Shown one piece after another: positions 2,944-36,627 of a stretch of 64,000 nt of DNA. The notes under the pieces are model-generated. The model was given only the letters and a program-made list of their open reading frames with translations, was not told the DNA's origin and made no database searches. How positions within the stretch are numbered: the stretch's first letter is position 1; the number at the start of each line of letters is the position of its first letter. A program made the position numbers and the translations under genes. Source of the stretch: Clostridia bacterium (GTDB lineage: Bacteria; Bacillota; Clostridia; Oscillospirales; CAG-272); assembly GCA_017471825.1 (NCBI GenBank), contig JAFURQ010000027.1, forward strand, positions 59,478 through 123,477, given 5' to 3'.

Positions 2944-5052
2944 ATGGTTCTGATAATCGCGGAAAAGCCGAGCCTTGCGCGTAATATCGTGGCTGGCATA
3001 GGTAAAATGGATAAAAAGGACGGCTATTTTATCAATTCCGATTATATAGTCAGCTGGGCGTTCGGTCACCTGTTTTCGCTCGTCGACGTCGAAACCTATA
3101 CCGGCACCACCGGCACAGGCTGGACCCTTGACACACTGCCTTGCTTTCCCGAAAAATTCAAGTTCGAGCTTAAACGCGGAAATGATAAGAAGGTCGATTC
3201 CGGAGTAAAAAAGCAGTTCTCCGTTATAGAAAAGCTCATCAACCGTCCCGACGTCGATACTGTTGTAAATGCAGGAGACGCGGACCGCGAGGGTGAGATT
3301 ATAGTAAGGCTTTGTATACAAAATTCGCTTAAATCTCCAAAGGAGCAAAAGCGTCTTTGGCTCCCTGACCAGACTCCCGAAACCGTCAGAAAGGCGCTTG
3401 CTGAAATGAAGGACGAGAGTGAGTATAACAGTCTTGCGGAGGAGGGCTTTGCCCGAACCTATATTGACTGGCTGTACGGCGTTAATTTGACACGGTATGC
3501 CACTATTCGCTCGGGACAGCTTCTCAGAGTGGGCAGAGTTATTGTTCCGATAGTCCGCGCAATATACGATAGGGATATAGAAATCAGAAATTTCAAGCCC
3601 GAAATATACTACGCCATACAATCAAGCGCAAAGACTCACGGGCAAAAAATTGACCTTGTAAGTAAACATAAGTTTGCAAAAGACGAGAAAAACAAGGCGG
3701 AAGAGCTCGCAACGCTTTACAATAATACGGGCGCTGTCGTATCTGCCGTTGAAAATAAAAAGGATACGATTTTCCCCGGAAAGCTTTACTCCTTGTCAAC
3801 TCTGCAAAACGTGCTTGGAAAAAAATATAAAATGAGCATGGCTGACAGCCTGAAAATTATACAAAAGCTCTACGAGGAGGGATACCTCACATATCCGAGA
3901 ACCAACTCGGAATACCTTGCAACTGCAGAAAAGGACAAAATGCGCTCGATAATCGCCAACGTTTCAAAGCTTGGATATCCCGTGCGCTTCAAGGACTCGA
4001 AATCAATATTCGATGACTCCAAAATCGAATCGCACTCTGCGCTTACCCCGACATACAAAATCCCCGACGTCAACAAGCTTGATGAAAAGGAAAAGCAGGT
4101 TTATTCCACCGTTTTCCGCAGATTTGTAGCGGTTTTCTGCGCCGAGGAGTGTATTGCGAGCAAGAGCGAGATACGGATAAAGGTTGGCGAGCTCGAGGAA
4201 TTTTCTCTCAAGGGTACGGTAATTCTTGAGCCCGGATGGACGAAATACGATGACTATTCCGGCAAGGATAAGGTCCTGCCCAAGCTTACAGTAGGGGAGT
4301 CGGTTAATATCGATTTCCAACCTACCGAAAAGGAAACCACACCGCCAAAGCATTACACTATCGAGACTCTCAATAAGTACCTTAAGAATCCTTTTAAGGA
4401 CGACAAGGCGAAGGCGCGCGAGCTTGAGGAGGCAGGCGAGGTCGACGATGCCGACGATTACCGCGCAATATTTGAAGGACTCGAGCTCGGCACCGAGGCT
4501 ACCCGTACGGGAATTATAGACAACGCCAGGAAAAGCGGATATATAAATCTCAAAAAGGATGTTTACACTATACTTGGCGGCGGTGAATTTCTTATAGAAT
4601 CGCTTGGACGCCTTGGTATCGCTATGGACAAGTATAAAACCAGCGAGATGGGCAAAGCGCTTAAAAAGGTTTTCCATGGAGAGATGAGCGCTGAAGAGAG
4701 TGTGAAGCTTGCAGAGCGTGAGATTCTCGAAATCTTCAAAAACGGAGGAACGGCGGTTGCTGCGGCGCCCGTACCGACAGGCTCGCTCGGTGAGATAGTC
4801 GGTCCTTGCCCCCTGTGCGGCAAGAACGTTATCAGAGGAAGACAGGGCTACGGATGTATGGGTTACAAGGAGGGGTGCGATTTCAGAATCGGGCTCACCA
4901 TTTGCAAAAAGACTGTACCGATAAATCAAATCCGCGCGCTTCTTGCGACGGGCACGACAGCAAAGCTTCGCGGTTTCATTTCAAAAACGGGAAAAAGCTT
5001 TGACGGAAAGCTGATAATAAAGGATGGAAAGGTTGTTTTTGATTTCAGTTGA
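2944..5052 (+). CDS. topB: DNA topoisomerase III with a C-terminal zinc-finger region
   Basis: MVLIIAEKPSLARNI is the Toprim N-terminus. YLTYPRTNSEYL contains the active-site Tyr region. The C-terminus has CPLCGKNV...GYGCMGYKEGCDF. GGAGG lies upstream of the start. Confidence 0.85.
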   Translation: MVLIIAEKPSLARNIVAGIGKMDKKDGYFINSDYIVSWAFGHLFSLVDVETYTGTTGTGWTLDTLPCFPEKFKFELKRGNDKKVDSGVKKQFSVIEKLINRPDVDTVVNAGDADREGEIIVRLCIQNSLKSPKEQKRLWLPDQTPETVRKALAEMKDESEYNSLAEEGFARTYIDWLYGVNLTRYATIRSGQLLRVGRVIVPIVRAIYDRDIEIRNFKPEIYYAIQSSAKTHGQKIDLVSKHKFAKDEKNKAEELATLYNNTGAVVSAVENKKDTIFPGKLYSLSTLQNVLGKKYKMSMADSLKIIQKLYEEGYLTYPRTNSEYLATAEKDKMRSIIANVSKLGYPVRFKDSKSIFDDSKIESHSALTPTYKIPDVNKLDEKEKQVYSTVFRRFVAVFCAEECIASKSEIRIKVGELEEFSLKGTVILEPGWTKYDDYSGKDKVLPKLTVGESVNIDFQPTEKETTPPKHYTIETLNKYLKNPFKDDKAKARELEEAGEVDDADDYRAIFEGLELGTEATRTGIIDNARKSGYINLKKDVYTILGGGEFLIESLGRLGIAMDKYKTSEMGKALKKVFHGEMSAEESVKLAEREILEIFKNGGTAVAAAPVPTGSLGEIVGPCPLCGKNVIRGRQGYGCMGYKEGCDFRIGLTICKKTVPINQIRALLATGTTAKLRGFISKTGKSFDGKLIIKDGKVVFDFS

Positions 5053-27973: not shown

Positions 27974-28888
27974 ATGTACGATATTATAATAGTTGGTGCC
28001 GGCCCTGCAGGTCTTACCGCGGCGCTCTATGCGCGCCGCGCAGAAAAGACCGCGCTTCTGATTGAAAGGTCCACCTTCGGCGGTCAGATTACCCATTCTC
28101 CGAGAGTCGAAAATTACCCCGGCTTTCTTGCAATGAGCGGCAATGAGTTCGCTGAAAAGTTGCTTGAACAGGTAATAACCCACGGCGTAGAAATTGAGCT
28201 TGATGAGGTCAAATCAGTTGAAAAAAGTGACACGGGGTACCTCGTTATCACCGAAAACAATGCGTTTGAGGCAAAAAGCGTTATAATTGCGACAGGCTCG
28301 CGCCACCGTCCTCTCGGCATTGAGCGCGAGGATGAGTTTGTCGGTGAGGGTATATCCTATTGTGCAGTATGTGACGGAGCCTTCTATAAGGGCAAAACCG
28401 TTGCTATAATCGGTGGCGGCAACACCGCACTTCAGGAAGCCGTGCTACTTTCGGAAACCGCCAAAAAGGTCTACGTTATCCAAAACCTCGCATTTTTCAC
28501 AGGTGAGGAAAGCTTAATCAATAACATCAAGGCTCGCGCAAACGTCGAGATAATTCTCTCGCACACCGTTGCTCGCCTCGTTGGTGATTCGGAGATCAAA
28601 GGCATCGTTATAAAAAATGAGCTCGGTGCCGAGCGCGAAATATCTGTTGACGGAATATTTGTCGCAATCGGTCAAATCCCGGAAAACACCCCTTTCGCTC
28701 CTCTCGTTGAGCTTGACGAGTGCGGATACATAGTTTCCGGCGAGGACTGCCTTCCCAAAACCGCGCAAAACGGAATATTCGTTGCCGGTGACTGCCGTAC
28801 AAAATCCGTGCGTCAGGTAACAACAGCGACGGCAGACGGCGCAGTAGCGGCATTATCTGCTTGCAGATATATAGATTCTCTTAACTAA
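27974..28888 (+). CDS. trxB: thioredoxin-disulfide reductase
   Basis: IIIVGAGPAGLTAALYA is the FAD-binding motif. CAVCDG is the redox-active disulfide. GGGNTALQEA is the NADPH site. Confidence 0.85.
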   Translation: MYDIIIVGAGPAGLTAALYARRAEKTALLIERSTFGGQITHSPRVENYPGFLAMSGNEFAEKLLEQVITHGVEIELDEVKSVEKSDTGYLVITENNAFEAKSVIIATGSRHRPLGIEREDEFVGEGISYCAVCDGAFYKGKTVAIIGGGNTALQEAVLLSETAKKVYVIQNLAFFTGEESLINNIKARANVEIILSHTVARLVGDSEIKGIVIKNELGAEREISVDGIFVAIGQIPENTPFAPLVELDECGYIVSGEDCLPKTAQNGIFVAGDCRTKSVRQVTTATADGAVAALSACRYIDSLN

Positions 28889-28893
28889 AAATC

Positions 28894-28950
28894 AAACGGT
28901 CTATCCACCTAAAACTCCACACGGGGTAGGGGATAGACCGTTTTTTGTTT
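28894..28950 (+). terminator. terminator-like long hairpin
   Basis: aaacggtctatcc ... ggatagaccgttt forms a 13-bp stem with a large loop and is followed by TTTTTGTTTTTT. Confidence 0.55.
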
Positions 28951-28969
28951 TTTATAACTTTAGAATTAT

Positions 28970-30178
28970 TTAAATGCTTTTTTTCGCAATAGCTGTGAAA
29001 TATGGACGCATATTTTCGAGAATTTCATCCTCAGTTTCAGCCGAGGGACAATCTGTCCAAAGACAGAAACCGGCGCCCTTTACTTTTTCATTTGGGGCAG
29101 AAATAATGTTTCCGGGCATGAACGGAGGAAAAATGTAAGTATTGTCGGTTGTACACTCAGAGTTCTTGGGAGCAAAAATGTAAGGATTCCACTCCTTCAT
29201 AATAGCCTCCGGAGTAACATACGAGGGTGCTTTATCCGGGTAAAGCGTGTAGTAGGTATAAAGCCTTGCAAAATTATATACATTGTGTCCCTTGTCAATA
29301 TAAAATTGCGCTGTGCCCTCGCCGTTATTAGTGTGCGGCGACCAATACTGTATGTCTATCGATTTGTCGATTTCTGCCGCGCATTGCCAGTCCGTATCGG
29401 ATATGCGATAAACGTCATCATTCCACATGCGAACTGATTCGTAGCCGATGCTGCGCAGAAGTGCCGTAATATCGTTCATATAGAGTATGAAGGCATCGTA
29501 TGCAACAGCGTTTTCTTTTCCTGTGCGAACTTTTGCATATTCCTCCCAGTGATCAAGGTTAGACCACTTGGAAACGGTGGGGTCAATAAGCTCCGCGCCT
29601 CCATCCGAGCAGCTCGTCACCTCCGATGTCAAAGCTGCGGCAACCAAGCTCATAAAAGAATTTGCCGTATTCGGTGTATATCTCTCTCGCAAAGGCAACC
29701 GCCTCGGGGTTTGATATATCTATTCCTCGGGAATACAAATTCTGTGATGTTTCGTTGCGTTCGCCTGTTGATTGAACAAGTGAAACCTTTCCGTGCTTGT
29801 GGAAATAGTTGCCGAGGTCAACTCCGTATTTTTGGTGGTATTTTTTTTGTTTTTAGCCTTAAGGTAGCCGTCGTTAAGACAGTTTTCAAGGAAAGGTCTG
29901 TTATCATACCAATACCAATCGTAAATGAATACGTTGATTCCGTGGTTGTAAGCACAGTTGATCTCCATTTCCATAACATCGGGGTTCGCTTCGTTTACGT
30001 ATCCCCATAAAGGCTGCCTGTCCCACACGTAATCAGCAGGCTTGTCGGCGCTGTTCTTTAGAACGTTTTTTACTGTTTACCATTCTCCAAATCCTTCTGG
30101 CCAAAACATTCTTGCACGCAGATCATCACCTGTATATGCCGGCCATACATATGCGGCAACATCATAGTTTTGTTTCAT
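28970..30178 (-). pseudogene. composite decayed glycosidase locus: GH99-like (WbsX-type) N-terminal part joined to a GH20-like part, with one nonsense codon and at least two frameshifts
   Basis: From the ATG at 30178 the translation reads MKQNYDVAAYVWPAYTGDD...GFGEW*TVKN..., with TAA at 30077-30079, then ...PLWGYVNEANPDVMEMEINCAYNHGINVFIYDWYWY. The frame is lost at the A/T tract near 29840. The next frame gives ...SFDIGGDELLGW (GH20 H/D-GGDE-like), with another shift near 29600. The last frame is ORF 28970..29698. Confidence 0.6.
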
Positions 30179-30252
30179 ACGCAACTCCTTACATTGATTG
30201 CTTCAGGTGCTAGTTAATTATAGTTTATCAATGATAAATAGTCAAGTGGTTT

Positions 30253-30274
30253 CTCTCAAATTTTATTTATGCAG
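30253..30274. repeat. 22-nt perfect repeat, copy 1 (ctctcaaattttatttatgcag), covering the stop and flank of spoIVB relic 3
   Basis: An identical 22-mer occurs at 31852-31873. Confidence 0.85.
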
Positions 30275-30388
30275 CTTTTGGTATTACTCCGTTTTGTGCG
30301 CGGTCCCAATCGGTAACGCTTGCAACGTAAATGAGTATAACATGGGTCACCGCGCCGATAAGCTCGCTGTTTTGAATGATATATAAGC
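30267..30388 (-). pseudogene. degenerate relic of the spoIVB 3' end (third copy)
   Basis: The reverse frame reads GLYIIQNSELIGAVTHVILIYVASVTDWDRAQNGVIPKAA*. The intact SpoIVB reads [47 protein letters not shown]. Confidence 0.5.
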
Positions 30389-30417
30389 CATTCCGGTGTG
30401 TAACAAAGATAATAAGT

Positions 30418-30660
30418 TTATTTTATTTCTTGTTCCAGCTTGTTGAATTCTTCGGTGTTGAAAAATTCAATCAGTGTTATTCCAAAACCGTCACAAAGCA
30501 TTTTTAAGGTCACTATTCCGGGATTTTTGCTTTTTCCGTATAAAATATTTTTTATTGACGAGGGAGCGACCGCCGATTCCATAGCAAGCCTGTGTATTGA
30601 CATTTTTCTTTCGCCCAGTAATTGTAATATTCTGTTTTTTACCGTAGTGTAAGTATCCAT
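30418..30660 (-). CDS. XRE-family helix-turn-helix regulator (80 aa)
   Basis: ...ERKMSIHRLAMESAVAPSSIKNILYGKSKNPGIVTLKMLCDGFGITLIEFF is a Cro/CI-type HTH. Confidence 0.8.
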   Translation of the reverse strand: MDTYTTVKNRILQLLGERKMSIHRLAMESAVAPSSIKNILYGKSKNPGIVTLKMLCDGFGITLIEFFNTEEFNKLEQEIK

Positions 30661-30694
30661 TCTTGCTTCTCCTCAAAATACTTTAGTTTAATTG

Positions 30695-30755
30695 TAGCCT
30701 AAACTCCTTGACAAAATGGGCTATATATGATACAATGTAGGCTATAAGTAGCCTT
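30695..30755 (+). promoter_or_regulatory. divergent promoter region with candidate operator half-sites
   Basis: TTGACA (30708-30713) is followed by a 17-nt spacer and TACAAT (30731-30736). TAGGCTA-taag-TAGCCTt forms an inverted repeat at 30738-30755, and another TAGCCTA lies at 30695-30701. Confidence 0.5.
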
Positions 30756-30782
30756 ACGGCTATTGGAAAGGAAGAAGTTAAA

Positions 30783-31724
30783 ATGAATAAACTATCTGTT
30801 ATTAATCCAGAAGATATTAATTCGGAAGACCTTGGTGCGTTGTGGGAGGAAACCAAGAAAAGACAAGCGGAGCTCGTTGCAAAAAGCAACGATTTAGAAT
30901 TAAAAATAAAAAATGAGTGTAAAGAGGTTTATCAAAGAAGCATAACCAATTCTGAAAACCAATTTGCAGCTGCATCAGGAAGAGTTAAAGAAATGATTAA
31001 AAGCAGAAATAAGTGTAGGCGTTCGCTTTCAAAATCGGCAGGTGCGGTTTTTCTTTATGCTTTTATAATTATTTGCTTATCCGTAGTTGTTAATCTGTTC
31101 ATTTTAAAGCTTGAAATAGTAAGTCCCGTGCTTACATATTTAATTTTCGCTGCGGCATCGTTTGTTATTTCCGGAATAACGGTTAAGCTTCGCAATAATC
31201 AACTTAAGAAAAAAATTACACAAATAAATGAAGATGAAGAAATTCTTGAATATGATAGAGCTGAAGCTGAAGCGGGTACACAAATAGAAAGAGAAATTGA
31301 TTACATAGAAAATGAAAAGTATAAGGCTGAAAGAGCAGAAATAGATAGATTGATGAAGGAAAACAACTATGAGGCTGTATTAAACGCTGTAATGAAACAG
31401 AAATACGGCGACACAGTTATGTTTTATTTTAAAAAATTTTCTTCGCTTAGCTATTATGAAATAAAAATGGACGGCGTAGTGTTGTTTAGTTCTAAATCTG
31501 TCAAATATCAACAAGTCAGACTTAATCCCGGTTATCATACAGTAACACTGATTCTTACGACTGAAACAAGTGAAACTATTTACACTAACACATTTACATA
31601 TCAGTATTGTGAAAGTGATTTGCCCGTATTTTTTGTTTGTTCGGAGGTTTGCGGTATAAGCGGCAGATTAAAGCAAGTAGATGCCGAAGCATTCCAAAAG
31701 GAAAGCGGCGTAAACATTTTGTAA
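30783..31724 (+). CDS. hypothetical membrane protein: coiled-coil N-terminus, two TM helices, charged coiled-coil, C-terminal beta-rich domain
   Basis: This 313-aa ORF is divergent from the XRE gene. No family was recognised. Confidence 0.6.
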   Translation: MNKLSVINPEDINSEDLGALWEETKKRQAELVAKSNDLELKIKNECKEVYQRSITNSENQFAAASGRVKEMIKSRNKCRRSLSKSAGAVFLYAFIIICLSVVVNLFILKLEIVSPVLTYLIFAAASFVISGITVKLRNNQLKKKITQINEDEEILEYDRAEAEAGTQIEREIDYIENEKYKAERAEIDRLMKENNYEAVLNAVMKQKYGDTVMFYFKKFSSLSYYEIKMDGVVLFSSKSVKYQQVRLNPGYHTVTLILTTETSETIYTNTFTYQYCESDLPVFFVCSEVCGISGRLKQVDAEAFQKESGVNIL

Positions 31725-31821
31725 TTAGTATTTATTTTTATTGTAATTGTGATACAGTGTAGTTTCTAAGCAATCTGAAAAGTATACATTTTATTGCTCT
31801 CATAGAGCATATAAAGTAAAT

Positions 31822-31856
31822 ACAAAAAGAGAGGGAAGCCTTAGGGCAACCCTCTC
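31822..31856 (-). terminator. rho-independent terminator (minus strand)
   Basis: The 7-bp stem gagaggg...ccctctc is followed by TTTTTG on the minus strand. Confidence 0.6.
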
Positions 31857-31873
31857 AAATTTTATTTATGCAG
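31852..31873. repeat. 22-nt perfect repeat, copy 2 (ctctcaaattttatttatgcag)
   Basis: It is identical to 30253-30274, but here it lies 38 nt downstream of the xylA-fragment stop. Confidence 0.85.
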
Positions 31874-31910
31874 TTGTTTCGCCTTTTGGATAGCAATTTC
31901 AGAGTAGCTT

Positions 31911-32367
31911 TTATCCAAACAGCGTTCTGTTCAGAACGCTCTCCAAATATTCCTGTCTGCCGCTGTTCGGTGTCGGGCAAGTGCGCATTTTTTCCGCGTG
32001 TTCTGCAAGCTCGGCAAGAGTTGTTTTTCCTGCTCTTATCTTCTGTCCAAGCTCGCTGTTAAAGCTCGAGTATTTTTTCTCAACGAACATATCAAGCTCG
32101 CCGTTCTCGATGAGCTCTGCGGCCTTGATAAGACCGAGCGCAAAGGTATCCATACCAAGAATATATGCATAGAACATATCCTCGTAGGTGTTTGAGGGTC
32201 TGCGGTTTTTTGCATCAAAGTTGAGGCCGCCCGTAAGACCGCCTGCCTTAAGCACCTCGTACATGCACATAGTGCTCTCGTATACGTCGTACGGAAACTC
32301 GTCAGTATCCCAACCGAGCAAATAGTCGCCCTGATTTGCATCAATAGATCCAAGCATTGAAAATGGC
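31911..32367 (-). pseudogene. xylA: xylose isomerase, C-terminal fragment only (about 150 aa)
   Basis: GSIDANQGDYLLGWDTDEFP...GGLNFDAKNRRPS...MDTFALGL is the XylA C-terminal third. The upstream part of the frame is unrelated sequence. Confidence 0.75.
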
Positions 32368-32673
32368 TTGTTGCGTGCTATATTTGATTTTATTGATAAC
32401 AATTTTAACAAAAGCTGTACTCTTGAGGATTTGAGTATCGCCATTGGATATAACAGCTCCTATCTCTCCAGATATTTCAAGGAATTTACCAATATGACGT
32501 TTGTTTCCTGCGTCAACCGATACAGAATCAGCAGGGCATGCTATATGTTAAAAAACAGTGATAAAACAGTGCTTGAATGCGCATACGAATGCGGATACAA
32601 ATCCTTGAGGAGCTTTAACAGAAATTTTATGCTGTACGTTGGGGTAACACCAACCGATTATAGAACAAACTAA
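32368..32673 (+). pseudogene. AraC-family HTH domain fragment (no sensor domain)
   Basis: The 101-aa fragment covers only the two-HTH DNA-binding domain (LEDLSIAIGYNSSYLSRYFKEFT..., ...ECGYKSLRSFNRNFMLYVGVTPTDYR). It abuts the xylA fragment head to head. Confidence 0.55.
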
Positions 32674-32685
32674 AACAAATAAAAA

Positions 32686-32728
32686 AGCAAAATCAGACCT
32701 GAAACGGAATGATTTTGCTTTTTATTTT
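32686..32728. terminator. bidirectional terminator-like hairpin
   Basis: The 10-bp stem agcaaaatca ... tgattttgct is flanked by an A-run and a T-run. Confidence 0.6.
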
Positions 32729-32873
32729 ATGCCGCCTTCGGCATAGCATTGAATTCTGCCGCGTTTAGCATATTCTCAATGAAAATTCCATACCCTTCAG
32801 TTGGATTTGCTACCATAACGTGAGTTACAGCGCCGACGAGCTTCCCATCCTGTATGATAGGGCTGCCTGACAC
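32727..32873 (-). pseudogene. displaced relic of the spoIVB 3' end (48 codons plus stop; second copy)
   Basis: It encodes [47 protein letters not shown]. It is colinear with the last 48 codons of the intact gene, but the DNA has diverged by roughly one position in four to five. Homology stops abruptly after atagggctgcctgaca (32857-32872), which is identical to 35618-35633. Confidence 0.75.
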
Positions 32874-32898
32874 GAGTGTGTTCAAGTAGGGACAACAG
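32874..32898 (+). repeat. 22-nt motif copy A (gagtgtgttcaagtagggacaacag), abutting spoIVB relic 2
   Basis: It matches 35312-35334 at 22 of 23 positions. Confidence 0.8.
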
Positions 32899-33082
32899 AT
32901 TTTAACAAATTATTGACATCTTCGACACCATTTATTGAGAAAAAACGTCTTTAGTCGTAGTATTTTAGCATATTTGCCACCCAAACAGCTGATAGCGAAC
33001 TATTTTTCTTGATTTTTTAACGTTTATAAGCGAGGGAATTCATAGGACGATTCCCACCCAAATAATTTTTGTTTCCATTGTT

Positions 33083-33229
33083 TTACTTTGGATTTTTTTG
33101 GGCCTTCTTTGACGATTGTTGATTTTTCTTTTTGTAATAATCCCATATAGCAAACTTCTGTTTGCGGCGGTTTTCGAGTGTTATGTTTTTTGATGGTTTG
33201 CCCTTTTTCAAAAAAGGAGATTTAGGCAT
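33083..33229 (-). CDS. possible 48-aa lysine-rich peptide, translationally coupled to the upstream gene
   Basis: The peptide is MPKSPFLKKGKPSKNITLENRRKQKFAIWDYYKKKNQQSSKKAQKNPK. Its ATG overlaps the upstream stop (ATGCCTAA). It could be a chance ORF in AT-rich DNA. Confidence 0.25.
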   Translation of the reverse strand: MPKSPFLKKGKPSKNITLENRRKQKFAIWDYYKKKNQQSSKKAQKNPK

Positions 33230-34019
33230 TGCTATCACCCCCTAAAATGAAATTTTCTTTTTCGTCAAATTTTCCGTTTTCAACGAGTATGTTTATTTGC
33301 TTGGATATTTCTTCGTTCGGCTCGCGCATTGTTTTCTCAAGTAAAAGTATTTTGCTGACATTGTAAATAGGAATAGAGTACAAAGTGTCAAATTTATCTT
33401 TTTCGAAATATAACAAATACCAATGCTCTTTTTTTACCGAAAACTCAAGCGCTGCGCAAAGAGCGCGTATAACCCTGCCGCCAATGTTAAATTGAAGAAT
33501 AAGCTCGTTCTCTATAGCCTCGTTCAGTTTGTTATACTCCTCGTTAAAGCAAATTCGCTCTTTTTGATATTCGGACTGATTAAAGTATTCGTGAATTAAA
33601 TTGCGAAGATATGCGCTGCGTTTTATTCCTATAGAATCAAGTCTGGCAAACAGCTCTGCATATAAATCTTCGTTTTTAACGTCAAATCGAATATTAATAA
33701 TATCATCGCACTCGTATTCGCTTTCGTCAAAATACAAGTAATCAAATGACTCGGCTAAAAAGTCGAGTATTTTTTCTTGCATTCCTTCAGCTATGCTTGC
33801 TTTAATGTTTTTATCAAGATATTCGCGCAAAAATCCTTTCTTGTAAGCGCGATAAGCAAGCATGTTAGGAAGCATTTTGTTGAAAAATTCATTTTCGTTT
33901 CCAAGTCCGTTTTTCTTAATGAAATTTCTTTTAGAAACTTCAGCGGTCATAAGTCTTGCTAACAAGCTCGGAACACGTAATGTCATTGTTTGTGGGTAAA
34001 ATTTATCTCTCATAATCAT
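33222..34019 (-). CDS. hypothetical protein with a WYL-like C-terminal region (possible ligand-sensing regulator)
   Basis: The segment ...ILQFNIGGRVIRALCAALEFSVKKEHWYLLYFEKDKFDTLYSIPIYNVSKILLLEKT... fits the WYL pattern (x-WYL-x(8-12)-hydrophobic-x-[IL]-x-R/N-[IV]). The N-terminal part is unassigned. Confidence 0.5.
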   Translation of the reverse strand: MIMRDKFYPQTMTLRVPSLLARLMTAEVSKRNFIKKNGLGNENEFFNKMLPNMLAYRAYKKGFLREYLDKNIKASIAEGMQEKILDFLAESFDYLYFDESEYECDDIINIRFDVKNEDLYAELFARLDSIGIKRSAYLRNLIHEYFNQSEYQKERICFNEEYNKLNEAIENELILQFNIGGRVIRALCAALEFSVKKEHWYLLYFEKDKFDTLYSIPIYNVSKILLLEKTMREPNEEISKQINILVENGKFDEKENFILGGDSNA

Positions 34020-34178
34020 AGTATATCATAAATGTAATGCAAAATCAATATATTTTTTGATATATATCAAGTAATATTCACTATTCTTAATAAATAAGTG
34101 TAATACAATATATGAATGCGATTGTATGCTATTATTCTTGTTTTGCTAGTGCTATAATATGAGTGCAATCAAAAAAGA

Positions 34179-34207
34179 TTGACAAATATATGAAAGGATG
34201 TTATAAT
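34179..34207 (+). promoter_or_regulatory. perfect consensus sigma-A promoter
   Basis: TTGACA (34179-34184) is followed by exactly 17 nt and TATAAT (34202-34207). The first ATG of the downstream ORF is at 34211. Confidence 0.6.
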
Positions 34208-34210
34208 TTT

Positions 34211-34702
34211 ATGGGATTAATAAAACTTGTTAATCAGTGGGTATATAAGCACTCTCGAAAGCCGGAGCATTACAAAAGAGTGAAAAATCCGCCAAAAACG
34301 ATTTCCGAAAAGATAAAGCGACCACAAGATGCACGTCAGCAACAGTATAACAATTGGTGCAAAAGATATGGCGTGTATAGCGGTTCATATTTGCCGAAAA
34401 ACCCGGATGCTCTTACGCGAAAAGGGTGGAGAGAAACCACTAATGTGAAAGATAAGACTAAAAAGCATAGGGAATTCCAACGCAAATCAACTTCTCAGAT
34501 GGTTCGATATGATAGCAAAGAGTTCAAAAAAGGGCGATATGAAGATGAACACTACCACTGGGAAAACGCCAAAAGCATTAAAGAAAGAAGAAAGCTTGGC
34601 GAGATGGAAAAATATGTTGATAGGTATGGAAACGTGTGCGCGGATGGCTCCAAGGAGTCGCACTTAGCACCAAAGGACAAAACGTACAACTTTAGGAGAT
34701 GA
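34211..34702 (+). CDS. small, very basic protein resembling a stand-alone polymorphic-toxin C-terminal (nuclease-type) module
   Basis: MGLIKLVNQW...LPKNPDALTRKGWRETTN...HREFQRKSTSQMVRYDSKEFKKGRYEDEHYHWENAK...YVDRYGNVCADGSKESHLAP is Lys/Arg-rich and has His-containing motifs (H-Y-H-W, S-H-L). The start is uncertain: GTG at 34163 or ATG at 34211. No family was assigned with certainty. Confidence 0.5.
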   Translation: MGLIKLVNQWVYKHSRKPEHYKRVKNPPKTISEKIKRPQDARQQQYNNWCKRYGVYSGSYLPKNPDALTRKGWRETTNVKDKTKKHREFQRKSTSQMVRYDSKEFKKGRYEDEHYHWENAKSIKERRKLGEMEKYVDRYGNVCADGSKESHLAPKDKTYNFRR

Positions 34703-35133
34703 TTACAATGAAAAAGCAAGAGTTATTAGATCTGCTTAACAAGGCGGCTGATAGTATAAATTTGCACGATGCAAGCATGTATGGCTTCAAGTGGATAAAC
34801 AGCACCGTTGAGTTTATTATATGTCTTGGCAGCTATCACTATATCATTAACGAGTTAGAAGAACTTGTCGACGATGTAAATAACCGTGTTGTTTTAACCT
34901 TGAAATTTGATGGTATTGAAAATGTTGAATGCGAGTTTTGCGAAGATTTCAGATACGACGATGCTGAAATAATGGAAAATAATCAGCTTGAAAACGGAAC
35001 TTTTGAATTTGTTTTTTTAGAATGCGGTAACCCCGGTAAAATATCATTTAGATATACCAAATTTGAGTGGGATGTTGTTGGTGAATTCGATTATGAGCAA
35101 ATCAAACAGTGGTGTAAAGAAAACGGGCTATAA
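34699..35133 (+). CDS. acidic 144-aa protein, immunity/antitoxin-like partner (speculative)
   Basis: Its start overlaps the upstream stop (ATGA). It is acidic. The pattern LHDASMYGFKWINSTVEF...VVLTLKFDGIENVECEF... resembles immunity proteins of polymorphic toxin systems. Confidence 0.55.
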   Translation: MITMKKQELLDLLNKAADSINLHDASMYGFKWINSTVEFIICLGSYHYIINELEELVDDVNNRVVLTLKFDGIENVECEFCEDFRYDDAEIMENNQLENGTFEFVFLECGNPGKISFRYTKFEWDVVGEFDYEQIKQWCKENGL

Positions 35134-35222
35134 AAAGGAATATATGGATATATCTCTTGATATAGATATGAACATCACCATAACATAAGTTCTATATGAT
35201 GCGGCATTGTCCAGGGAATACC

Positions 35223-35246
35223 AGTGTGTTATAATAGGGATAACAC
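35223..35246 (+). repeat. 22-nt motif copy B (agtgtgttataatagggataacac), degenerate
   Basis: It shares AGTGTGTT-A-A-TAGGGA-AAC with copies A and C. It is also internally palindromic (gtgttat...ataacac). Confidence 0.65.
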
Positions 35247-35283
35247 AATTACTATTAAAATCGAATAATGCTCGGACGAAAGA

Positions 35284-35297
35284 CTGTTGTCCCTATT
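35284..35297 (-). repeat. inverted partial copy of the 22-nt motif (ctgttgtccctatt)
   Basis: It forms a perfect 12-bp inverted repeat with 35323-35334 (aatagggacaac) across a 25-nt spacer. Its 12 nt ctgttgtcccta are the exact reverse complement of tagggacaacag at 32887-32898. Confidence 0.8.
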
Positions 35298-35311
35298 ATA
35301 ACTCACTCGTG

Positions 35312-35334
35312 GAGTGTGTTCAAATAGGGACAAC
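35312..35334 (+). repeat. 22-nt motif copy C (gagtgtgttcaaatagggacaac)
   Basis: It matches copy A at 22 of 23 positions. Confidence 0.8.
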
Positions 35335-35340
35335 TTTTTC

Positions 35341-35470
35341 TATAATCAAGCGAAGCGAATCGACAAGCTTGATTGTCAGCAAGCGAGCGCAGATTGCCCC
35401 GCGAGCGCTCCGTAAACGGAGCAATACACGAAGTGCCGCCGCTCGAGCGGCGAAGCTCGCAAGGAGTATA
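35341..35470. repeat. GC-rich cluster of short palindromes just downstream of the spoIVB stop
   Basis: The palindromes are aatcaagc...gcttgatt (8 bp), gcgagcgc in two direct copies, ctccg-taaa-cggag, and the 16-nt perfect palindrome cgccgctcgagcggcg. Confidence 0.7.
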
Positions 35471-35487
35471 ATTTCACTTTTTCCTCA

Positions 35488-36627
35488 TTACGCCGCCTTT
35501 TGCTGCACCTGACTTTCTGCCGCGTTTAACATATTCTCTATAAAAATCCCGTATCCTTCCGTTGGGTCAGCAACCATCACGTGGGTGACCGCTCCAACTA
35601 ATTTCCCATCTTGTATAATAGGGCTGCCTGACATTCCGCGGACGATGCCGCCCGTGAGGGCTATCAGGGTTGGGTCGGTGACCTTGATTTTGAAGGATTT
35701 TGAGCCGGTTGAGGAGTAGTCAACGTCCTTGATTTCGACGTTGAATATACCGCGCTTGCCGTTCTTGACTGTTGAAATTATTTGTGCCGCGCCGCATTTT
35801 ACCTCGTTGCTTTTTGCGGCGGGCATCAGCTTGTCGCAATAGTCGGGTAGGGTATCGAGCGTACCGAAAACGCCGCACTCGGAATTTTTGGCAATAGAGC
35901 CGAGTGTTGCTTGCTTCAGCACTCCCGTAAGCTCGCCTGCGTGTCCGACCTCGCCCTTCTTACAGCCGCCGAGAGTTACAGAGTTAACCGTGCCGCTTCT
36001 GACGCTGACGTAGCCTGTTCCGTCTGCGGCGGAGACCCCGTGACCAAGACCGCCAAAGGCGAGCGTTTCGGGATCGATAAACGTGACAGTGCCAATGCCT
36101 GCGGTGTGAGCGCGAAGATTTACGCCGAGCTTGTAGACTCCGTCACAGAGCTTGGGTACGGCGGTTACGTTAAGTATTTCTCCGCCTCGAATTATTTCAA
36201 GCTCAAGCTTTTTACCGCCGGAATTTTTCACCGCATCCTCCACCTCGGAGCATTCGTGGACATCTTTACCGTTTACCTTTAATATTCTGTCACCGACAAG
36301 GAGCACGCGTGAGGAGGAGCCGCTTGTCACGGATACGCCGTCCTCGTTAATTATAAGCCCAAAGGCAGAGCCGCCGGGGTATAGCATAATAGCCTCGTCG
36401 TCTTTCCTTTTACCGCCGAAGAAGAGCTCGTAGATTCTTGAGGAAACCTCAACGTTTTTTGATACCGCAGCAACGCCGCCGTCGCTTAAGGTGGCAGGCG
36501 TGTAACATTTTTCACTGTATAAATCGGCAAAACCTGCTGATGCAGAACCGCTGACGGCGGTGCCGAGCAGGCACGCAAGCATACAAACAGCGGTTGTAAA
36601 TTTTAACAATATTTTTCTCATTCCCAT
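35488..36627 (-). CDS. spoIVB: SpoIVB peptidase (S55 family, PDZ plus serine protease)
   Basis: There is a signal/TM N-terminus and a PDZ-like region. GTVTFIDPETLAFGGLGHGV contains the catalytic His, and GMSGSPI contains the catalytic Ser. Confidence 0.85.
   Translation of the reverse strand: MGMRKILLKFTTAVCMLACLLGTAVSGSASAGFADLYSEKCYTPATLSDGGVAAVSKNVEVSSRIYELFFGGKRKDDEAIMLYPGGSAFGLIINEDGVSVTSGSSSRVLLVGDRILKVNGKDVHECSEVEDAVKNSGGKKLELEIIRGGEILNVTAVPKLCDGVYKLGVNLRAHTAGIGTVTFIDPETLAFGGLGHGVSAADGTGYVSVRSGTVNSVTLGGCKKGEVGHAGELTGVLKQATLGSIAKNSECGVFGTLDTLPDYCDKLMPAAKSNEVKCGAAQIISTVKNGKRGIFNVEIKDVDYSSTGSKSFKIKVTDPTLIALTGGIVRGMSGSPIIQDGKLVGAVTHVMVADPTEGYGIFIENMLNAAESQVQQKAA

Follow-up and report, generated by a model that had tools for sequence, protein, structure and literature searches.

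In a 64-kb stretch of a Clostridia genome (contig JAFURQ010000027.1; "the window" below means this whole stretch), a 2.8-kb segment sits inside the 3' end of the sporulation gene spoIVB. We read this segment, with confidence a little above even, as one unit of a family of non-autonomous cassettes for which spoIVB serves as the landing pad, each insertion taking place at a TG dinucleotide under catalysis supplied in trans and replacing the 3' end of the gene. The evidence is observed directly in the sequences compared: the architecture of the unit, a fixed junction, horizontal spread between hosts, a history of selection on both copies of the gene end, and no recombinase linked to the loci. The first-pass annotation of the window had proposed a recombinase-less cassette that was either non-autonomous or decayed; the non-autonomous mobile footprint and its replacement gene end stand, whereas the element belongs to an array-forming family and is not a decayed one-off. 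This family is widespread in gut Clostridia and apparently undescribed; a full-text literature search turned up neither spoIVB in the role of attachment site nor any account of cassettes like these.

The intact spoIVB gene (36627-35488; features are collected in Table 1) yields a product of 364 aa by the start called in public assemblies, and a protein identical to it (P0001) is present in ENA/Logan contigs. As the annotation had claimed, a second 48-codon 3' end lies downstream (32870-32727), at a distance of 2.76 kb from the first; we call the in-use end copy A and the displaced one copy B, or the relic. The two are 81% identical in DNA (82% over 119 nt, 92/114 over the first 38 codons), and their codon differences comprise 19 synonymous and 1 non-synonymous, compared to 432 synonymous and 130 non-synonymous differences between adjacent copies across the family (34 pairs of adjacent 3'-end copies). 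Because divergence is dominated by synonymous changes, both copies must have evolved as working gene ends, which excludes duplication in situ followed by decay and agrees with the annotation's view that this is not a recent tandem duplication. Within an array, identity between adjacent copies is 69-97% (median 79%), against a between-locus background of 72%. The ratio of non-synonymous to synonymous change (N/S) in relics is roughly two to three times that in active ends, which indicates slightly relaxed selection, far from neutral, and the relics are young.

Homology between copies A and B sets in with the TG of the GMSGSP Met codon, immediately 5' of the first Ser codon, which places more exactly the break that had been assigned to this block. 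The Ser codon that opens the relic is one we take to be aligned with the catalytic Ser of GDSGGP-type proteases. A 16-mer at this point, TGTCAGGCAGCCCTAT, is found solely at 35618-35633 and 32857-32872, with a chance expectation of about 0.01 matches; its uniqueness to the two sites holds, but it is not a recombination core, as in 13 of 34 pairs across the family the partners share no more than TG. The DNA between the copies has a GC content of 26-40% versus 50-58% in spoIVB, matching the AT-rich interior noted earlier, and the terminator described after the relic is present as a hairpin with arms at 32677-32695 and 32710-32728.

The cassette also carries four copies of a 23-nt motif, M (GTTGTCCCTAYTTGAMCACACTC / GTTGTCCCTATTTGAACACACTC), which are confined to it within the 64 kb. 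Three of these match at no more than three mismatches, against zero expected, and the fourth is degenerate, so that the 22-nt motif picked out in the annotation is real. We ran a degenerate M motif against 185,579 species-level genomes and obtained 73 loci on about 65 contigs, representing approximately 63 species-level genomes, all of them metagenome-assembled genomes labelled Eubacteriales, Oscillospiraceae, Ruminococcus or Clostridia and derived from ruminant and human guts. The JGI metagenome collection contributed 27 short contigs with M, many terminating at a copy of the motif. All mapped M motifs adjoin a spoIVB 3' end, and the mapped set comprises 47 intact spoIVB genes together with 56 relics that have M ahead of them. 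All 56 relics begin at residue 332, the catalytic Ser, after ...CACACTC[G/C]TG, in hosts whose SpoIVB proteins share only 33-65% identity with that of the window. The genome scan returned no copy of the unit running from Mr, the reverse arm of the palindrome described below, to Mf*, the right-end M, outside spoIVB.

Compared loci are labelled here with L-numbers (L004, L008 and so on). Six of them (L010, L023, L057, L063, L073 and L079) are arrays of 2-4 gene 3' ends with differing cargo between, reaching a maximum in L023, where four 3' ends occupy one 4-kb stretch. L010 illustrates a tandem arrangement, in which a WYL regulator module is followed by a relic, a palindrome, a Fic/Phd module and a second relic. 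In terminal relics, that of the window included, the palindrome is often missing and the sequence continues into unrelated DNA, which is what an original gene end would show; no M palindrome trails copy B.

This regularity bears on the simplest account of the locus, a local duplication or the remnant of a paralogous S55 gene, with the AT-rich DNA as strain-specific filler and nothing mobile. Such an account has nothing in its favour beyond the bare duplication, and we find it scarcely credible given the synonymous-dominated divergence, the same junction in 56 cases and a cassette common to distant hosts. The relic moreover has no upstream coding sequence of its own in the window's ORF list and sequence, which disposes of the paralogous origin that the annotation had named as a way in which its own reading might fall.

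The ends of the unit are conserved as well. At the right end about 40 nt are conserved across the family (an A-rich flank, M and NTG), and in the window the fourth M abuts the relic there (32896-32874, then GTG). The left end conserves about 160 nt, made up of GGAAAATATATGAAAAAA, a palindrome formed by a pair of M copies, AGTCTTTTGTCCGA, in most cases a third M, and then TTCCTTGGATGATGCC. In the window the palindrome, with its 3-nt centre, lies at 35334-35286, about 150 nt past the spoIVB stop, and the third M follows 40 nt beyond it (35244-35222). The centre consists of three variable nucleotides in 78 of 80 cases, CAC being the commonest. M itself is kept at 0-3 mismatches in 23 nt, compared to roughly 50% identity at third codon positions of the adjoining 3' ends. 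The palindrome is predicted to fold into a hairpin (z = -5.6) and is followed by a T-run in several loci, and we considered whether it acts purely as an RNA terminator; this was rejected, since it is the sequence of the arms that is conserved and Mf, the forward arm, shows no compensation for changes in Mr, which makes recognition of the sequence likelier than recognition of structure alone. A likeness of M to the spoIVB target CCCTATTATA was likewise set aside, as it rests on silent codons of the window genome only and is absent in other hosts.

Two further features occur beside the M copies. In most loci a conserved mini-ORF (ATG AAA AAA GTT GTC CCT ATT TGA, encoding MKKVVPI*), with GGAAAATAT ahead of it, overlaps the first palindrome M; it is found at L010:1955-1985 and at 35334-35350 in the window, where its 5' part has been replaced by insertion of a miniature inverted-repeat transposable element (MITE). 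TGTCGAA-like boxes stand just upstream of the right-end M in one cassette subgroup, including the window (32915-32935).

The paired ends could also be those of a transposon with terminal inverted repeats. The unit would then run from Mr to Mf* (35311 to 32871) with inverted ends of 26-33 nt, CACGAGTG...GGGACAAC, a transposase would act in trans, and the palindromes would be abutted ends, like the junction of an insertion-sequence circle or dimer. An inverted repeat between the unit ends (I1, 33 nt, 82%) agrees with this, as do high-identity cargo segments that stop at the outer edge of Mf*, and abutted ends would explain a junction promoter: with the variable 3-nt centre between them, the palindrome's arms carry a promoter-like TTGAAC-17-TATAAT (35323-35295 in the window), its -35 in one arm and its -10 in the other. 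However, removal of such a unit leaves M fused to the relic and no sensible target, there is no short target duplication, no transposase appeared in the cargo and locus scans, no copy of the unit has so far been found outside spoIVB, and neither the functional 3' end before every unit nor the constant junction codon is explained. We consider a transposon of this kind very unlikely.

Comparison between hosts indicates that the cassettes move. Overall, hosts with spoIVB bodies of 66-77% identity, or with none that can be aligned, carry cassette DNA that is 85-97% identical; the values for cassette and gene, respectively, are 91% versus 77% for L016 and L019, 85% versus 66% for L016 and L056, 86% versus 68% for L055 and L067, and 91% versus 76% for the window and L064. 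The widest gap is seen with L008, which has the same order of gene end, palindrome, cargo, M, GTG and relic, a regulator 95% identical to that of the window and cassette DNA 87% identical over 1.6 kb, but a SpoIVB of only 43% protein identity and no match to the window's spoIVB at the DNA level.

The closest relative, L004 (SpoIVB 87% identical), has neither cargo nor relic. Its spoIVB is followed by an M palindrome and then, within 170 nt, by a convergent oxidoreductase gene that in the window lies 6.6 kb off (27974-28888), and it joins the palindrome region straight to the convergent terminator that the two loci have in common (28890-28955 in the window). An empty site had been predicted in relatives; L004 lacks cargo and relic but keeps the A-type arrangement with its palindrome after the stop, and an allele in which the gene ends as the relic does, followed by the relic's terminator, was not found. 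Copy A is 73% identical to the L004 gene end over 114 nt, but identity just 5' of the junction is 85-89%. Identity to L004 was also tried as a means of telling the native copy, and is not decisive (73% for A, 75% for B).

The position of the exchange is narrowed by the codons that touch the junction. In 43 of 56 relics the first six codons encode SGSPII, with Ser codons of both the TCN and AGY types (N/S 0.19, versus 0.07 in active genes), and this conservation implies that they were once in use, which speaks for an exchange at the TG itself. Around the junction, 13 of 34 pairs of partners have nothing but the TG in common, and in 20 of 34 the identity spans 4 nt or less. Identity limited to TG speaks against a tyrosine integrase, whose overlap would span 6-8 bp, and is what a serine recombinase needs.

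The same observations bear on homologous recombination acting by itself, whereby DNA carrying a spoIVB 3' segment would enter through a Campbell-type (ends-in) crossover within the 147-nt homology, M and NTG would be an old, inherited scar, and cargo would change by double crossovers within the conserved end modules. This process would yield an identical structure and would suit the mosaic 3' ends and the exchange of cargo apart from 3' ends described below, as well as searches that found no recombinase. We nevertheless regard it as unlikely to be the whole explanation: the first relic codons could never have entered an active gene and should decay, yet they are conserved at the protein level and vary between TCN and AGY; adjacent copies are often 70-75% identical, too diverged for efficient RecA activity over 147 nt; M is conserved far above nearby silent sites, implying sequence-specific recognition; and transfer has taken place between hosts with non-alignable spoIVB DNA.

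Under the cassette reading that we favour, a unit would consist, in order, of the TG of the GMSGSP Met codon, a replacement 48-codon 3' end with its stop, a spacer, the left-end module, cargo, and the right-end M-NTG. We infer that a trans-acting enzyme recombines the TG of a circular cassette with the TG|Ser position in the resident gene. The gene would then continue into the incoming 3' end, and the former 3' end would be displaced downstream, behind the right end of the cassette, with repeated insertion producing arrays; copy A would accordingly have arrived with a cassette. Catalysis would be provided by a recombinase encoded elsewhere that recognizes M, of the serine type or otherwise independent of homology, and would involve neither a tyrosine integrase nor RecA at the junction. 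Cargo may also pass from one platform to another by way of the conserved end modules or the M sites. As the most economical model, insertion at the TG explains why the junction is fixed, why both copies have a functional past, why terminal relics such as that of the window lead into unrelated DNA, and how the cassettes have spread horizontally.

We searched for the enzyme in the cassette, the 64-kb window, approximately 100 loci, and viral, phage and plasmid collections. Pfam, PHROGs, NCBIfam and PADLOC recognized no recombinase among the cassette proteins, as the first-pass annotation had stated, and motif searches for tyrosine and serine recombinases, which are heuristic, found none in the window and none linked to the roughly 100 loci. 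Cargo was surveyed as 83 ORFs from 34 arrays, with no recombinase among the 25 most frequent of their 60 Pfam families nor in 20 of the ORFs scanned singly. The 30 further ORFs from open-ended or neighbouring regions gave no recombinase family, consisting instead of sugar kinases, glycosidases, transporters and housekeeping genes. No cognate integrase or autonomous partner was found in the loci or in the viral, phage or plasmid collections. A helper phage or plasmid was considered and rejected: viral contigs contained no M match, the plasmid collection had no match to the cassette DNA, motif included, and the lone match in the phage collection (MT838563) lacks M. That 5.1-kb record (L111; MT838563.1, "Bacteriophage sp.") consists of an ordinary spoIVB-spo0A fragment of a bacterium, the spacer of which contains a Spo0A-box-like TGTCGAA, and is probably bacterial DNA in a virome.

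Several observations weigh against the cassette reading, or against its simplest form. Neither a circular junction nor an attB restored in the predicted way was seen, nor any enzyme, and the regular-expression searches for recombinases are heuristic. As read from consensus sequences, the target and the right end have neither dyad symmetry nor mutual similarity. Pairs of loci sharing cargo at 84-97% average 76% in their upstream copies and 72% in their relics, and a comparison of the window with L064 gives 40-70% identity for the gene body, 73-80% for copy A, 72-88% for the left end and 87-98% for the cargo. Cargo is thus more alike than the 3' ends, indicating that the latest transfers moved cargo alone. 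Solo palindromes with no relic occur in L004, L012, L014, L031 and L038, and for these the simple model needs secondary deletion. The 3' ends can be mosaic, as in L008, where the head resembles that of L010 and the tail that of its own relic, so that homologous exchange must also act at spoIVB. Finally, L016 carries a hybrid M (4200-4290) in which the crossover fell inside the motif rather than at its edge, the left half and flank coming from a right end and the right half and tail from a left-end M'f, the third M of that module; it links two AAA_14 cargos directly, neither relic nor palindrome intervening.

Neither the upstream copy nor the relic proved to be tightly linked with the cargo when co-inheritance was considered, and between L016 and L052/L067 a segment of 97% identity ends precisely where the right-end M has its outer edge. 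Exchange has two levels: platforms, meaning the 3' end and the end modules, change slowly, and cargo is swapped faster via the conserved ends, by an M-specific or a short-homology route. The annotation's single integrative element is upheld in its functional replacement 3' end, but the arrangement is more modular, as cargo moves separately from that end.

Independent movement of cargo also invites an integron-like explanation, in which M sites would be attC-like, the Met|Ser position attI-like and the 3'-end segment itself a small cassette. Recombinase-less arrays split by a conserved, imperfect palindrome whose 3-nt centre varies would fit, as would the hybrid M of L016, the solo palindromes, and cargo of toxin-antitoxin and adaptive types such as chromosomal integrons carry. 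No locus, however, has an IntI-like gene beside the platform, M lies outside the attC R/L box consensus by inspection, some internal relics have no palindrome, the crossover is inside M in L016 but at the edge of M in relic junctions, and many cassettes have their own promoters and regulators. We judge an integron-like mechanism quite unlikely as a full account. M-centred exchange of this sort and homologous recombination are probably real additional processes rather than full alternatives to cassette insertion at the TG.

Comparison with known systems places the spoIVB cassettes close to several, and they lack a defining feature of each. The e14 and phage 21 elements in icd of Escherichia coli are large prophages that carry their own tyrosine integrase, use a sizeable identical core and leave behind an icd pseudo-3' end. 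The spoIVB cassettes resemble them in insertion into a coding 3' end, in codons supplied by the element and in a relic that differs mainly at silent sites, but are units of 1-5 kb with no integrase, a TG-only junction, arrays and M end modules. Cis-mobilizable elements (CIMEs) at the fda 3' end of Streptococcus thermophilus (the ICESt1/ICESt3 family) are deletion derivatives of integrative and conjugative elements that have an integrase at the same site. Like them, the cassettes are non-autonomous, bounded by att-type sequences in a gene 3' end and accreted in tandem, with a recombinase thought to act in trans; unlike them, they have no autonomous partner that we found, and are short, highly modular and present in about 63 species-level genomes. 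The flanking direct repeat of the gene 3' end beside an intact gene, typical of both e14 and CIMEs, is found in the window and in 34 pairs elsewhere, but a shared core of at least 6-8 bp is not found family-wide despite the 16 nt in the window.

Integrons and clusters of attC sites lacking integron-integrases (CALINs) share with the cassettes small recombinase-less arrays, imperfect palindromes, diverse adaptive cargo resembling toxin-antitoxin genes, and independent exchange. The cassettes differ in having no IntI, no attC boxes and their own promoters and regulators, and in a platform that is the spoIVB coding 3' end, with replacement of the gene end. By inspection, the palindrome ends GTTGTCC / GGACAAC match the attC boxes (RYYYAAC / GTTRRRY) only in GTT/AAC. 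To our knowledge, integrons are essentially unreported in Clostridia. It is possible, and we propose it tentatively, that spoIVB of gut Clostridia hosts a hitherto unrecognized gene-capture platform, analogous to the integron in function and differently built, with docking at the Ser codon, restoration of the gene by the 3' end of each cassette, recognition of M, an unlinked enzyme (a dedicated recombinase, one of the host or an enzyme of a new kind) and shuffling of cargo across genera.

Integrative mobile elements exploiting Xer (IMEXs), such as CTX, TLC and GGI, use host XerCD at dif. The cassettes are similarly integrative with no recombinase of their own and stack in tandem at one chromosomal site, but their target is intragenic (Met331|Ser332), and neither M nor the spoIVB site contains, by inspection, a dif-like 11-6-11 site. 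The skin element in sigK and SPbeta in spsM are large-serine-recombinase elements that split the gene they occupy and have to leave it in the mother cell; spoIVB, for its part, is expressed in the forespore. What the cassettes share with these is a Firmicute sporulation gene as the attachment site, together with a junction identity limited to TG, serine recombinases needing only a 2-nt crossover identity; they differ in that spoIVB is never interrupted and no recombinase of their own is present. The TG-only identity fits the dinucleotide crossover of a large serine recombinase, but no half-site symmetry is visible and the site on the circular form would resemble attR, not attP.

If confirmed, these cassettes would be a route by which Oscillospiraceae, and related Clostridia of the gut and rumen, commonly gain and lose genes; those for sugar utilization, surface proteins, toxin-antitoxin and Fic functions and candidate defence are parked in arrays behind one conserved gene. 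The sharply defined sites (M, NTG|Ser) make the recognizing enzyme a concrete, testable question. For annotation, additional C-terminal fragments of S55, and contigs that break at M repeats, are signatures of arrays and not assembly noise. The fixed junction could possibly act as a natural safe-harbour site for engineering poorly tractable anaerobes.

Table 1. Features of the spoIVB region in window coordinates. AF2, AlphaFold2; pLDDT, predicted local distance difference test; RHH, ribbon-helix-helix; HTH, helix-turn-helix.
Feature	Positions	Strand	Basis or remark
spoIVB, PDZ + Peptidase_S55, 379 aa	35488..36627	-	ORF list; Pfam S55 E 1.4e-68
Copy A: TG of Met331 codon, codons 332-379 and stop; in-use 3' end	35488..35633	-	Sequence comparison
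MITE-like insert, GC-rich, ~130 nt, between spoIVB stop and M palindrome	35342..35471	-	Absent from L004 there
Left-end module: Mf 35334-35312, centre CAC, Mr 35308-35286, AGTCTTTCGTCCGA stretch, M'f 35244-35222, TTCCCTGGACAATGCC tail	35170..35340	-	Conserved in ~40 loci
144-aa ORF, second gene of divergent pair, no family	34699..35133	+	87-97% DNA identity to L064
179-aa ORF (163 aa from ATG 34211)	34163..34702	+	AF2 pLDDT 93.6
265-aa RHH + WYL protein, predicted ligand-sensing transcription regulator	33222..34019	-	AF2 pLDDT 88.9; Foldseek; PADLOC
Small basic ORF (MPKSPFL...YYKKKN), always after WYL gene	33083..33238	-	Homologous 47-50-aa ORFs in L002, L007, L008, L010
Right-end module: A-rich flank, Mf* (32896-32874, GTTGTCCCTACTTGAACACACTC), GTG; junction TG = 32872-32871	32871..32912	-	Same end and junction at 56 relics
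Copy B (relic): codons 332-379 and stop, starts with catalytic-Ser codon; under the favoured reading the displaced earlier 3' end	32727..32870	-	Pfam S55 C-terminus E 4.3e-18
Terminator-like hairpin (arms 32677-32695 / 32710-32728) and T-run after relic stop	32677..32728	-	Inverted repeat I6, sequence
Further accessory DNA, missing from L004	28960..32673		Locus comparison, Pfam
AraC fragment (HTH only)	32368-32673	+	
XylA2_C fragment	31911-32444	-	

The four ORFs of the window cassette have no Pfam, PHROG or NCBIfam match. For the 265-aa protein, which has 57 homologues, the structural model retrieved 6oaw (the RHH-WYL protein WYL1, E 1.6e-8) as the top Foldseek match, followed by DriD, CapW, PafBC and BrxR, and PADLOC gave a weak WYL match (2.2e-4). 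A beta-alpha-alpha pattern and a KRSAYLRNLIHEY motif point to the RHH domain, so that the protein pairs a WYL ligand-binding domain with a DNA-binding domain, as WYL regulators do; this structure rules out the ORF as a novel recombinase. The divergently transcribed 179/163-aa gene is preceded by a perfect sigma-A-type promoter (TTGACA-17-TATAAT, 34179-34207), and its 163-aa protein had no PDB match by structure or sequence despite a confident model. This protein (34211-34702, plus strand) has 38 homologues and a conserved HYHW motif. The 144-aa ORF may have an immunity-like role, judging from its position.

In L005 an EndoU_bacteria protein occupies the place equivalent to the 179-aa ORF. There (L005:8985-12419), a homologue of the WYL regulator stands with this 176-aa protein and an ORF of 121 aa, and a gene of the OLD-family nuclease type (OLD-TOPRIM/AAA_15) adjoins them. 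The parallel suggests that the WYL regulator may control interchangeable toxin-like or defence modules, and that the two-gene pair of the window is possibly a toxin with its immunity protein or a defence system. The same regulator, small ORF and divergent pair also occur beside tRNA-Gln in L007 (8890-11300; GCA_054291065.1, JAZPHR010000066.1), flanked by three 77-nt repeats with a terminator-like hairpin and a decayed tRNA 3' fragment and with no M motif, an arrangement that may represent a second, different cassette platform.

Across the family, the cargo includes AraC regulators (10), AAA_14/DUF4143 ATPases (8) and Fic proteins (7), with Fic occurring with Phd in cargo pairs, together with BspA-type leucine-rich-repeat proteins, dehydrogenases, BNR sialidase-like proteins, lyases of the dihydrodipicolinate synthase family, NUDIX proteins, a fucosidase and a glycyl-radical enzyme; many cassettes bring their own promoters and regulators.

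Beyond the relic, the 2.8-kb extent given in the annotation is correct for the cassette, but accessory DNA runs on to about 28960. Besides the two gene fragments listed in Table 1, the 28960-32673 region contains WbsX-like and 242-aa ORFs and, in an AT-rich block (30.4-31.9 kb), genes for a membrane protein of 313 aa and an HTH protein of 80 aa. We read this region as the decayed remains of older cargo; AraC and sugar genes are the commonest cargo type of the family. An Rfam scan of 30-38 kb returned nothing meaningful.

The MITE-like insert ahead of the left-end palindrome is a separate small element, outside the cassette backbone. It has the form TATACTCCTTGCGAGC...CGCTTGATTAT, has no Rfam match and is inserted at TTAT/TAT-like sites. 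Further copies were found at L010:2773-2902, L050:2320-2451, L043:6790-6915, L062:549-684, L080:1771-1898, L060:4072-4201 and L023:1-72, several of them within spoIVB relics and one between Fic and Phd genes.

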